DNA of 3,030 nt from Candidatus Krumholzibacteriia bacterium (GTDB lineage: Bacteria > Krumholzibacteriota > Krumholzibacteriia > LZORAL124-64-63): positions 1 through 3,030 of the forward strand of contig JAZBOO010000372.1 of the NCBI GenBank assembly GCA_036351155.1. Reading direction: 5' to 3'. Below, one piece after another: positions 485 through 2,456 of this stretch. The notes under the pieces were generated by a model. That model searched no databases. It saw only the letters and a list, made by a program, of their open reading frames with translations, and had not been told where the DNA came from. How positions within the stretch are numbered: position 1 is the first letter of the stretch; the number at the start of each line of letters is the position of its first letter. The translations under genes and the position numbers were made by a program.

Positions 485-1342
485 TCAATCAGAATCATCG
501 GCCCCCGCCACCTTTTGCCCAAATTGCGCAAGCACGGTGCCCGGGGAAGGATGAGATTCCCCCACCTGCCGGGAAAGGATGGTCAGCCCCACCTCGGCCG
601 GGCCCTTGATGCTTGCCATGGCCTCACGGCATCTGTCCACATCACGAGATTCCAGGCCAGCGAGTTCCGATCGGGGTGAAGAAAGGCAACTCTGGTCCAC
701 GATGATGATTTCCAGCCGCAAGGGCGTCAGAAGCCTCAGAGCCCGGTTCAATGTATAAAAACTGGACAGAGATCCGGCCTCGGACGGGCCCAGGCACCAG
801 GCCAGGGTACTGCTGGCCGGCAAGCGCAAAACCTCGGCTCCCGGCACAAGATTGGCAGCCTCCAGCAGTCCAAGCTGATGGTTGTTCAAGCTCCCCAGAT
901 TCCTGACGGGAAAGGGTTTCCTGTTCGAAGGTGGCCTGCTACGAGATTTACCCCGAGGAGATTCCGGGAGGGCCTCCAGAGAAACGGACCAGAGGCAGGG
1001 GTCCGGAGCCCCGGCCAGCGACAGATCGCTGGATCCGGATTGAAGTTCCGGGGCGAACTCCTGCAGGTGACTGATGGCCGACCAGTGCAATCGTGGTGAT
1101 TCCCTGAGCTGGACCTGGCTTGACCTCATGCCACGGATCATTCCCGCGCAAACCCACGCGATCACATGCCCATGCCCCGACCCGGCCACGGCCAGACATT
1201 CAGCCCGGTCAGAATCAATGGCCGCTTCCTGTTCACTCGGTTCCAAAAAATGATGCGCAATAGCAGAGATGTGGTGAGGTCGTTTCTTGTTTCCTCCGGA
1301 TAGACCTTCGGTGAACCGACCCTTCGGTTTTTCTGGAACCAT
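485..1342 (-). CDS. Hypothetical protein (285 aa), possibly a degenerate/inactive ParA/MinD/FlhG-like P-loop fold
   Basis: Long ORF starting 40 bp after the stop of the ParA-CBM48 gene on the same strand, with ATG preceded by GGGGGA (1357-1352). Its segments line up in order with ParA/MinD elements, but the catalytic residues are missing (see findings). The CDS call is fairly secure; the fold assignment is inference. Confidence 0.75.
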   Translation of the reverse strand: MVPEKPKGRFTEGLSGGNKKRPHHISAIAHHFLEPSEQEAAIDSDRAECLAVAGSGHGHVIAWVCAGMIRGMRSSQVQLRESPRLHWSAISHLQEFAPELQSGSSDLSLAGAPDPCLWSVSLEALPESPRGKSRSRPPSNRKPFPVRNLGSLNNHQLGLLEAANLVPGAEVLRLPASSTLAWCLGPSEAGSLSSFYTLNRALRLLTPLRLEIIIVDQSCLSSPRSELAGLESRDVDRCREAMASIKGPAEVGLTILSRQVGESHPSPGTVLAQFGQKVAGADDSD

Positions 1343-1382: not shown

Positions 1383-1655
1383 CTAGGGGATTTCCACCAT
1401 GCTGTTTGCGCCCCCGAATTCGTTGGGAACAGTTTCGCTGTTGTGCGGATCCGGCAACCAGGCGCCGTCCACGATAAAACGGTATTCATAACGTCCTGGA
1501 TCCAGAGCCAGGTGGGCCTCCCACATCCCATCCTCCCGCTTCTGGAGTCCCAGGCCCTTGGCAGACCAGTCACAGAAATCTCCGGTGATGCGCACGGTTT
1601 TCGCACGCGGAAAATCGGCCTCGAAGCAGACACCGGATTGTGTTATTTGCGGTCC
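1383..1655 (-). other. Glycogen/starch-binding CBM48 (AMPK1_CBM-like) domain-coding segment of the ParA fusion
   Basis: The motifs G-D-F-x-x-W, L-x-P-G-R-Y-E-Y-R-F-I-V-D-G-x-W-x-x-D-P and F-G-G-x-N-S are characteristic of the AMPK beta-subunit glycogen-binding domain family. Confidence 0.9.
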
Positions 1656-2456
1656 GTGGAGCAAGGACATCCAGTGATCCAGACCCGCCACCGTCAGATC
1701 CACTTCCTGTTCACAGACTTCCCTGGCCAGGTTGCGGAAGTCGAGGGCACCACGGCTTTCAGGGTCAAACTCCACCACAGGCTGTCCCAGTCCGGCGGCC
1801 TCCTTGAAGCGCACAGTGTGGTGAATGATGGTCTCGAACAGTTCCTGATCGTACAGTTCGTCCAGTTCCTCCATGAGCTTGCGCACGAATCGGGGCCGGG
1901 TGTCGAAGTCTGAAAGCAGGACCCGCGGGATGATATCATGCCCCTTCTTATCCCGGAGAACGGCCAGGGTTTCCCTCATTTTTCGGACAGCCTGCAGGCT
2001 GTAGGTGCTGGGATCCACGGGGATGATGACCTCTCCACTGGCCAGCAGGGCATTGAAGGTCAGGAGACTGACGCTGGGGGGACAATCGATCAAAACGTAG
2101 TCATAGGGCAGGTCACTGCGGCGAAGATTGTTGCGGAGTCGAAGGTCCCGCTCCTTTTCCCCGGACAGCTGCTGCTCGACGGCGCTCAGTTCGATGCCGG
2201 CGGGAACCAGATGGAAGCCGGGCCCGATTTCCAGGAAGGCGTCCTGCACCAGAATGTCGCTGCTGAGGTAGAGATCGTAGGTGGAGAGGGAAAAATCGCG
2301 TTCCCGGAAGCCGAAGGCCAGGGTGGCGTGCCCCTGGGGGTCGTTATCGATCAGTAACACCTTTTTGTCGAGCCGGGCCAGAGAGGCGCAAAGATTGGTG
2401 GTGGCGGTGGTTTTTCCACAGCCGCCTTTCTGGTTGGCCAAGGCGATGACTCTCAT
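1383..2456 (-). CDS. ParA/Soj-family ATPase with C-terminal glycogen-binding domain (AMPK1_CBM / CBM48-like E-set), 357 aa
   Basis: ParA/Soj domain at aa ~1-250: deviant Walker A KGGCGKTT (aa10-17, nt 2429-2406), Walker A' LLIDNDPQG, Walker B VLIDCPPS, LLTFNALLAS, and C-terminal VRFKEAAGLGQPVVEFDPESRGALDFRNLAREV. AMPK-beta-like CBM48 at aa ~268-357: AKTVRITGDFCDW...DGMW...LDPGRYEYRFIVDGAWLPDPHN...NEFGGANS. SD AAAGGA lies 6 nt before the ATG. Confidence 0.95.
   Translation of the reverse strand: MRVIALANQKGGCGKTTATTNLCASLARLDKKVLLIDNDPQGHATLAFGFRERDFSLSTYDLYLSSDILVQDAFLEIGPGFHLVPAGIELSAVEQQLSGEKERDLRLRNNLRRSDLPYDYVLIDCPPSVSLLTFNALLASGEVIIPVDPSTYSLQAVRKMRETLAVLRDKKGHDIIPRVLLSDFDTRPRFVRKLMEELDELYDQELFETIIHHTVRFKEAAGLGQPVVEFDPESRGALDFRNLAREVCEQEVDLTVAGLDHWMSLLHGPQITQSGVCFEADFPRAKTVRITGDFCDWSAKGLGLQKREDGMWEAHLALDPGRYEYRFIVDGAWLPDPHNSETVPNEFGGANSMVEIP

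Follow-up and report, generated by a model that had tools for sequence, protein, structure and literature searches.

Here we describe a gene of Candidatus Krumholzibacteriia bacterium that joins a Soj/ParA-type ATPase to a carbohydrate-binding module of the AMPK-beta type (CBM48) in one protein of 357 amino acids (aa). It lies on a 3030-bp contig (JAZBOO010000372.1; C372), which is analysed here at its full length as the window and comes from a 4.19-Mb genome (G000) of 405 contigs and 97.6% completeness. A second gene, the partner gene, follows the fusion, and a DUF212 membrane protein gene precedes it. ParA/MinD ATPases are a general bacterial means of placing chromosomes, plasmids, carboxysomes, chemoreceptor arrays and division sites. 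The ParA-CBM48 fusion and its partner form a widespread pair that probably ties storage-sugar particles to the chromosome; if so, it would become possible to test whether dividing cells share out their storage polysaccharide at random.

A Soj/ParA ATPase joined to an AMPK-beta-type CBM48

A sequence-only reading of this DNA had described a single uninterrupted open reading frame (ORF) running from an intact ParA ATPase into a glycogen-binding domain. The frame indeed contains no internal stop, and the coordinates and domain borders proposed earlier agree with Pfam and with solved structures (ATPase at aa 1-250, CBM48 at about aa 270-357). AAA_31 covers aa 1-170 (E 9.4e-46; 156 bits, cut-off 27) and a CbiA match spans aa 4-227, while the C-terminal part is matched by AMPK1_CBM (PF16561; aa 285-356, E 6.2e-12, 46.0 bits, cut-off 26.8) and CBM_48 (PF02922; aa 275-331, 26.6 bits, cut-off 22.4). 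An AlphaFold2 (AF2) model based on 37 relatives, with a predicted local distance difference test score (pLDDT) of 82.7, places a short helix (aa 259-266) between an alpha/beta domain resembling Soj and a beta-sandwich that starts at aa 270. Across 124 architectures the linker between ParA and CBM varies from 6 to 369 aa, as would be expected of a flexible tether.

Among solved structures, aa 2-250 align with Myxococcus xanthus ParA (8RAY; E 3e-45) and with the Soj proteins of Thermus thermophilus and Helicobacter pylori. The best Foldseek matches of the model are likewise Soj/ParA proteins (template-modelling score normalised to the target, TM, 0.79-0.83; 30-38% identity), which outrank BcsQ, McdA and MinD. 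The ATPase motifs comprise a deviant Walker A, NQKGGCGKTT (K10, K15), D37 and D39, the Walker B residue D124 and the basic residues R216 and K218. K10, G11, G12, K15, D37, D39 and D124 are invariant in 46 sequences (the window and 45 related loci). In a broad set of 128, made up of the window and 127 representatives at about 35-57% identity, K10 and K15 are each kept in 126, D37 in 126, D39 in 127 and D124 in all. Alignment to 8RAY places R216 in the column of M. xanthus ParA R238, a residue whose change to glutamate abolishes non-specific DNA binding according to the accessible text of PMC12462528. Position 216 is R in 40 and K in 5 of the 46 sequences (R or K in 104 of the 128), and R216 is likely the DNA-contact residue of the fusion. 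A histidine at aa 43 (window 2328-2330), in a DPQGH motif kept in 125 of the 128 where aligned Soj/ParA proteins have asparagine (PQGN), may be a family signature near the nucleotide site.

The source genome holds seven AAA_31 matches, the best of which (214 bits, contig C23) adjoins the genome's sole ParB_N gene. Since this canonical parA-parB pair lies on contig C23 and no ParB_N gene stands beside the fusion, the latter is an additional ParA without ParB. It scores 124.2 bits with NCBIfam ParA_partition, below the cut-off of 180.

The C-terminal domain (aa 285-356) matches the CBM chains of AMPK beta2 and beta1 among solved structures (E 2e-7 to 3e-6), and also type II pullulanase and SEX4. 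In the HMMER alignment W297, R326, W333, F347 and N351 fall in the columns of AMPK beta W99/100, K126, W133, L146 and N150, with self-consistent spacing (7 residues from K to W; 17 from W133 to N150), so that the residue mapping proposed from the sequence is upheld. We take L146 and N150 of AMPK beta1, the counterparts of F347 and N351, to be glycogen-contact residues. W297, W333 and N351 are invariant in the 46 sequences, in which position 326 is R in 40, K in 5 and L in 1, and position 347 is F in 42 and Y in 4. In the broad set W297 is present in 128/128, R or K at 326 in 124, W333 in 124, G348 in 122, and N or D at 351 in 115, and the claim that the sugar-contact residues are intact thus extends to the whole family. 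In AMPK beta1, the available text of PMC6274970 reports, glycogen binding is abolished by W100G and K126Q and weakened by W133L and G147R. The C-terminal CBM48 should bind alpha-1,4/1,6-glucan, and the conservation counts suggest purifying selection on the ATP site, on the probable DNA-contact residue and on the canonical sugar site.

Three other identities of the ATPase were considered and set aside. BcsQ profiles fall short of their cut-offs (TIGR03371, 91.9 bits against 157.85; NF007460, 21.5 against 399), as do those of BY tyrosine autokinases (TIGR01007, 30.9 against 108; TIGR03018, 32 against 230), whose C-terminal tyrosine cluster is missing from a protein that ends in a CBM (...NSMVEIP). 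The MinD profile TIGR01968 gives 54.6 bits against 212.9, and the C-terminus is a beta-sandwich, not an amphipathic membrane-targeting helix.

Table 1. Features of the window, with related features elsewhere in the source genome and in metagenome loci
Feature	Position	Strand	Basis or remark
ParA-CBM48 fusion gene, 357 aa + stop	1383..2456	-	ORF without internal stop, Pfam, full-length relatives
Soj/ParA-type ATPase domain, aa 1-250	1707..2456	-	Pfam, structure alignments, conservation, AF2 fold match
Linker, aa 251-269, with conserved helix (W262, L265, L266, G268, P269)	1650..1706	-	
AMPK-beta-type CBM48, aa 270-357 (W297, R326, W333, F347, G348, N351)	1386..1649	-	Pfam, alignments
Partner gene, 285 aa, starting 40 nt downstream of the fusion	485..1342	-	tblastn and profile in related loci
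Partner N-terminal peptide, aa 19-33, KKRPHHISAIAHHFL	1244..1288	-	Read as putative ParA-activating peptide; the one stretch of the partner with strong conservation
DUF212 (divergent PAP2) membrane protein gene, cut by contig end	2661..3029	-	Pfam; upstream of fusion
Start of ~200-aa protein with signal-peptide-like hydrophobic stretch, cut by contig end	3..488	-	
Glycogen-enzyme matches in the source genome	Contigs C179, C242, C26, C247, C66, C381		
Lysine-rich proteins of the low-GC lineage	L109:7111-7512, L112:7464-7979, L117:3012-3419, L116:4288-5001		

The fusion recurs across several phyla

The sequence-only reading allowed that the fusion might be a one-off or an assembly chimera. When one genome per species was scanned, 46 loci (L010-L055) came up at 46-85% identity, one of them cut by a contig end, some labelled Krumholzibacteria or Krumholzibacteriota and a few otherwise; the full-length 357-aa protein recurs from start to stop in 45 of these other species-level loci. 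The best 120 clusters at 90% identity include PF16561 in 119, nearly all at exactly 357 aa. Because of this recurrence a chimera can be dismissed. Nor is the architecture isolated: in a search of 1.84 billion representatives with two domain profiles, 127 of the best 150 clusters at 50% identity have ParA followed by CBM, while 14 consist of ParA only and 9 of CBM repeats only, and a profile of 50 distant members returned 120 proteins, all 120 with both Pfam domains. Named carriers belong to Omnitrophota/Omnitrophica, the PVC group/Planctomycetota, Deltaproteobacteria, Desulfobacteraceae (Desulfobacterota), Schekmanbacteria and Glassbacteria. Within the phylum Krumholzibacteriota 151 of 208 species genomes carry the fusion (match E <= 1e-70), and the 57 non-carriers include whole genera.

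The nine ATPase-less proteins, P0121, P0134, P0208 and P0253 among them, consist of 5-18 tandem CBM48-like copies. P0121 has 1812 aa and 18 copies at 34-40% identity to the fusion CBM. Such proteins could be multivalent glucan-binding scaffolds.

A fast-evolving partner gene adjoins the fusion

The module built into the ATPase had been thought to take the place of a separate partner. This expectation failed, because in Krumholzibacteriota a conserved partner gene with a ParB-like N-terminal peptide always adjoins the fusion. By tblastn the partner was found at the same place in 20 of the 46 loci, and a profile search added 12 cases from families f8 and f9 in which it neighbours the fusion; 29 copies align at 19-29% identity. 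By this recurrence beside the fusion in related loci (tblastn, alignment, profile) the partner ORF is a real gene. No Pfam or NCBIfam family matches it, and a protein atlas search gave no usable match.

The only strongly conserved stretch of the partner is an N-terminal peptide (H24, I25, A29, H30 and F32 in the 29 aligned copies), which reads KKRPHHISAIAHHFL in the window and RPRHIRDIAHLYLS in f8 and f9; the motif is kept in the 29 aligned partners and in 11 more f8/f9 partner ORFs. In the accessible text of PMC12462528 an unstructured N-terminal ParB motif of aliphatic and basic residues suffices to stimulate ParA, and the general rule under which such a peptide is read as ParA-activating is taken from the available parts of PMC11407121 and PMC12462528. 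Because the peptide resembles ParB N-termini and because of this published role, we regard it as a candidate ParA-activating, ParB-like peptide.

In metagenome loci from other phyla the partner was traced by its peptide. The Krumholzibacteriota partner profile found no partner in 14 metagenome loci with the fusion, and the link there is a peptide read by eye. In 6 of the 14 a related N-terminal peptide occurs in the gene downstream (KPLGRGLEDVSHLFLS, KRLGRGLEDITDIFIS, KKLVRGLRDISPLF); this LG(R/K)GL-like form (KPLGRGLEDVSHLFLS) resembles the N-terminus of the source genome's own ParB, VLGKGLSALIQ. Six other loci, of a lineage low in guanine plus cytosine (low-GC), have just upstream of the fusion a protein of 186-202 aa that starts with EIY(E/D)HLA(K/Q)(I/V)YL followed by a hydrophobic stretch, a weaker likeness, again seen by eye. 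A 16-residue peptide profile run over 3919 ORFs of 80 metagenome loci gave no significant match (E 0.4-9); among its 11 best-scoring hits, three are the genes that immediately follow a fusion and one stands beside an unfused ParA.

The rest of the partner (aa 45-283) is predicted to adopt a P-loop-NTPase-like alpha/beta fold (pLDDT mostly 85-95; 77.8 overall). The structural matches of this model are CooC1, TRC40/Get3, HypB, MipZ, McdA and ParA, with Z 8.5-10.3 over 158-200 residues, and a Rag GTPase scores equally at 10.3; the best Foldseek match is ParA 3EA0 (E 4.6e-4). In the alignment the glycine-rich loop lacks its lysine and no GK[ST] is present, and comparison of the partner and fusion profiles with hhalign was not significant (probability 0.07%). 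On the predicted fold we call the partner a Walker-A-less P-loop-like protein; it is possibly a degenerate ParA, that is, a pseudo-ATPase.

Two metagenome loci, L121 and L118, contain a close ParA without CBM (about 47% identity to the first member of the family profile). The gene that follows it starts with KRLGKGIEDISHLFLS in L121 (5989-7844), and in L118 (446-2313) it weakly matches the ParA profile (E 0.0011). The partner after the unfused ParA in these loci has a LGKGIEDISHLFLS-type peptide and a ParA-like core, and looks like an unfused version of the module. Because these relatives keep ParA and partner without a CBM, the ParA-plus-partner pair seems to predate the CBM, which has the look of a module added later.

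Genes around the pair

Related loci share one gene order on one strand, namely DUF212, fusion, partner, a protein of about 200 aa, Wzy_C, a family 4 glycosyltransferase (GT4), a WecA-like polyprenyl-phosphate sugar transferase and a methyltransferase, and both ends of the window agree with it. The ~200-aa neighbour matches neither a Pfam nor an NCBIfam family. In families f8 and f9 only DUF212, fusion and partner stay together, and peptidases and ClpB come next. The DUF212 gene, which also lies upstream there, may be a component of the module. Upstream of the low-GC fusions stands an Alginate_exp porin gene, recognised by Pfam in L109 and L114 and by a similar N-terminus in L112, L115 and L116.

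Partial co-occurrence with glycogen genes

Co-occurrence with glycogen pathways was predicted from the domain composition. The source genome encodes glgA (498 bits) and glgC (459 bits), with scores that exceed the NCBIfam cut-offs, as well as a CBM48-GH13-isoamylase-C protein (a GlgX-like debrancher) and a DUF3417-phosphorylase (alpha-glucan phosphorylase). In genome G207 (family f9) two glycogen-synthase-like glycosyltransferases, a GH57 branching enzyme (BE_C), an alpha-glucan phosphorylase and a second GH57 protein follow the fusion on the same strand within 9 kb, and a GH57 gene stands two genes upstream of it in two metagenome loci (L109, 213 bits; L112, 209 bits). Across Krumholzibacteriota the glycogen-synthase domain PF08323 is found in 131 of the 151 carriers as against 29 of the 57 non-carriers, in counts that ignore the relatedness of the genomes; four genera (g37, g39, g18, g14) lack both the fusion and PF08323. 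Within f8 and f9, 6 of the 17 carriers have the domain, as does 1 of the 19 non-carriers. The predicted association stands for these genomes, and fails for the 20 carriers without PF08323, five of which lack all the enzyme families searched (below). The link of the fusion to glycogen genes is partial.

The source genome has a second AMPK1_CBM match (31 bits) at C2:24843-25090 on the plus strand, at the start of an ORF that is truncated by the contig end.

Discussion

We favour the reading that the fusion and its partner form a two-gene module acting as a nucleoid-based tether or positioner of alpha-glucan particles, with a probability of roughly 0.45. From the architecture, residue conservation, gene pairing and partial link to glycogen genes we infer DNA binding, glucan binding, activation by the partner and positioning of the particles. 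The cytoplasmic Soj/ParA-type ATPase would bind ATP and settle on nucleoid DNA as a sandwich dimer, and the C-terminal CBM48, on its linker of variable length, would bind glycogen-like alpha-1,4/1,6-glucan particles. Because each subunit bears one CBM48, the dimer would have two sugar-binding heads and could tether such particles to the chromosome. The fast-evolving partner would then dock its N-terminal ParB-like peptide on the ParA dimer, triggering ATP hydrolysis and release of the ATPase from DNA. Repeated cycles of binding and release could spread the particles along the nucleoid or keep them there and so pass them on to both daughters, much as ParA proteins handle plasmids and carboxysomes. 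That several phyla tether and partition alpha-glucan particles on the nucleoid in this way, by a ParA with its own cargo module driven by a pseudo-NTPase partner with a ParB-like peptide, is a broader and somewhat more tentative proposal. In a bolder variant, the partner-bound machinery would sit on the glucan particle, which would itself be a third type of matrix in addition to nucleoid and membrane.

Several observations weigh against a glycogen tether. The carrier counts cited above ignore relatedness, and glgA occurs without the fusion in whole genera (g3, g22 and g28). In the source genome itself no GH13-type GlgB was found (best match 46.6 bits), and GH57 matches reach 23-26 bits inside proteins of 794 and 1289 aa; either the assembly misses its branching enzyme or that enzyme has diverged, or the glucan has few branches. 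PF08323 is absent from 20 of the 151 carriers, and 11 of these, in f8 and f9, also lack TIGR02095 glgA and PF00343 phosphorylase. Five f8/f9 carriers of 91-96% completeness (G200, G196, G198, G206 and G174) were examined closely: none has a GH13 match (0/5), GH57 is represented by one 22-bit match, and GlgC-like matches stay at or below 75 bits against a cut-off of 425. The W/R/W/F/N set is nonetheless kept in 14 of the 15 f2/f8/f9 fusions examined, these five included, the exception being one G200 copy. Partners of the f8/f9 carriers without glycogen enzymes retain the peptide. Since the sugar site is kept where none of the searched alpha-glucan enzymes was found, the ligand may not be classical glycogen; in the five carriers either an alpha-glucan is made by enzymes outside those searched, or the domain has another ligand there, and the identity of the ligand is therefore a genuine problem and not a formality. 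Finally, ParA and the partner peptide occur without a CBM in L121 and L118, which implies that the module can work without its sugar-binding part.

Other readings of the fusion itself are less probable than the tether. The ligand of the CBM48-like domain could be no alpha-glucan but, for instance, a different polysaccharide or the surface of a protein, and the label 'glycogen-binding' would then mislead for this family. The five near-complete carriers just described fit such a view, as do further PF16561 proteins of 680-970 aa without a known alpha-glucan catalytic domain, one of them beside a polysaccharide flippase gene, and weaker Protein Data Bank (PDB) matches to CBM48-bearing ferulic acid esterases (E 0.18-0.7). 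However, the exact AMPK-type aromatic platform is kept across phyla, as are the K/R and N positions, the best sequence matches are AMPK beta CBMs, type II pullulanase and SEX4, and glycogen genes lie near the fusion in G207, L109 and L112, so we consider this explanation improbable. It is rather unlikely, in our view, that glycogen is a signal or platform and not the cargo, the CBM reporting on the glucan store and sequestering or releasing an ATPase that positions something else, so that storage would be coupled to another process. For this speak the predicted folded core of the partner (aa 45-283, pLDDT mostly 85-95), which could serve as a cargo adaptor, the appearance of the CBM as an added input, given that unfused relatives keep ParA and partner, and the role of the AMPK beta CBM in the inhibition of the kinase by glycogen (in the accessible part of PMC6274970). 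The neighbourhoods, on the other hand, suggest no second cargo that can be named, and carriers without glycogen enzymes pose the same problem here; no result obtained here separates this proposal from the tether model. An ordinary second chromosome- or plasmid-partition ParA with an incidental C-terminal domain would account for the best PDB and NCBIfam matches, which are Soj/ParA partition ATPases, and for source annotations that read 'chromosome partitioning protein'. It is very improbable, given that the genome's sole ParB_N gene stands beside the canonical parA and none adjoins the fusion, that the CBM site is strongly constrained, and that the ParA_partition score (124 bits) lies below the cut-off of 180.

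The gene neighbourhood raises a further alternative, which we judge unlikely: the pair may organise envelope-polysaccharide assembly, placing or regulating a lipid-linked glycan pathway (Wzy_C, GT4, WecA-like, and DUF212, which is phosphatase-like), in which case the ligand of the CBM would be a sugar intermediate in the cytoplasm, or else glycogen that supplies carbon. The proposed role of BcsQ for cellulose synthase offers a parallel. The recurrent envelope-glycan company of the pair is the main support for this idea and a further point against a glycogen tether. In 30 related loci with at least 6 kb of downstream DNA, Wzy_C (O-antigen-ligase-like), the WecA-like transferase and a 435-aa protein of no known kind each occur in 30 and GT4 in 29, on the same strand within 8 kb, and DUF212 lies directly upstream of the fusion in all 39 loci with enough upstream DNA; this order holds even though the partner has drifted to 19-29% identity. 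In the unrelated low-GC lineage the fusion is near an Alginate_exp porin gene (L109, L114), genes for PEP-CTERM export, chain length, an ATPase and a tyrosine kinase lie 2-5 kb downstream of it in L112 and L117, also at odds with a glycogen tether, and the peptide-bearing neighbour is a membrane-anchored protein. The cluster is nevertheless lost in f8 and f9, where peptidases and ClpB take its place, and in most metagenome loci. The ATPase is nearer to Soj (30-38% identity, TM 0.79-0.83) than to BcsQ (20-22%, TM 0.70-0.75) and remains below the NCBIfam cut-offs for BcsQ and tyrosine kinases, the CBM is cytoplasmic whereas Wzy products polymerise outside the cytoplasm, and the sugar site is of the alpha-glucan type seen in AMPK beta.

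The domains and the general ParA logic are familiar; novelty would lie in their combination, in the class of partner and in the cargo. Chromosomal Soj/ParA proteins (8RAY; T. thermophilus 1WCV/2BEJ; H. pylori 6IUB) share the deviant Walker A fold, give the best sequence and fold matches and have a basic residue at the DNA-contact arginine, and the N-terminal peptide of the partner, with its aliphatic and basic residues, is likewise shared. The fusion differs from chromosomal ParABS in its CBM48, in the absence of an adjacent ParB or parS and in a partner with a P-loop-like fold and no ParB_N, and its family differs from Soj/ParA in the DPQGH histidine and in scoring below the ParA_partition cut-off. 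In McdA-McdB, PomXYZ and ParC/PpfA, as described in the accessible text of PMC11407121, an extra ParA-type ATPase similarly stands beside a fast-evolving, family-less partner gene, with the nucleoid as presumed matrix for non-DNA cargo. McdAB-type systems also have an adjacent partner with a basic/aliphatic N-terminal peptide, though activation is a prediction in the present case; unlike them, the fusion carries the cargo-binding module within the ATPase and its presumed cargo is a carbohydrate, and McdA is the more distant relative (E 1e-10). BcsQ resembles the fusion in being a ParA/MinD-family ATPase of a polysaccharide gene cluster, and CBP_BcsQ spans the whole ATPase domain (56.5 bits), but the fusion falls short of the BcsQ cut-off (91.9 bits against 157.85), matches its fold less well than that of Soj, and has no cellulose synthase genes in the loci examined. 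The CBMs of AMPK beta/SNF1/SnRK1 and those of SEX4/LSF1 belong to the same domain family, with the same glycogen-contact residues, and are non-catalytic modules that recruit another activity to glycogen or starch; here the module is bacterial, sits on a ParA ATPase instead of a kinase scaffold or phosphatase, and is predicted to bind.

In the accessible text of a 2024 review of ParA/MinD ATPases (PMC11407121) the cargos are DNA or protein assemblies reached through a separate adaptor, and the words glycogen, carbohydrate, polysaccharide and granule each occur 0 times. A literature search, which left subscription journals and bioRxiv supplements outside its scope, found, among the papers listed, no report of a ParA-CBM48 fusion or of ParA positioning glycogen granules. 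The tether model, if true, would give the ParA/MinD family its first carbohydrate cargo and its first built-in cargo adaptor, and a family spread over many uncultured phyla, with a sugar head on the ATPase and a dedicated activator, would add a new class of cargo. An ATPase, a linker and a CBM could also serve as a minimal portable tether for synthetic cell organisation.

Other features of the loci

A scan of the window gave 2 promoter-like sites (0.7 expected), none of them upstream of the fusion, and 3 terminator-like sites (3.8 expected).

The five closely examined carriers have 2-6 AMPK1_CBM (PF16561) matches per genome, the fusion CBM included. The other PF16561 proteins of carriers without glycogen enzymes (680-970 aa) come in two forms, one of about 680 aa whose CBM is N-terminal and one of about 950 aa whose CBM is C-terminal. 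A protein of the latter form weakly matches an MGH1-like glycosidase and adjoins a Polysacc_synt flippase gene (L197-L200; G200, G196). Beside the ~680-aa protein lies a small CBM protein (G200, G196, genomes in which no GH13, GH57, GT5 or GT35 was detected).

In the low-GC lineage a lysine-rich protein with KKK/KRK runs at its N-terminus is encoded one or two genes downstream of the fusion (Table 1); those of L109, L112 and L116 match no family, and in L109 and L112 proteasome-beta-like genes follow.

The closed 4.3-Mb genome G200 has two copies of the fusion (L102, G200:C1:952000-971000; L103, G200:C1:1780000-1799500). Copy b, located after ATP synthase genes, is accompanied by a normal partner. 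In copy a, R326 is replaced by Q and F347 by L, and the fusion is followed by a 646-aa frame with the partner peptide at its N-terminus and an NrfD-like membrane domain in its C-terminal half.

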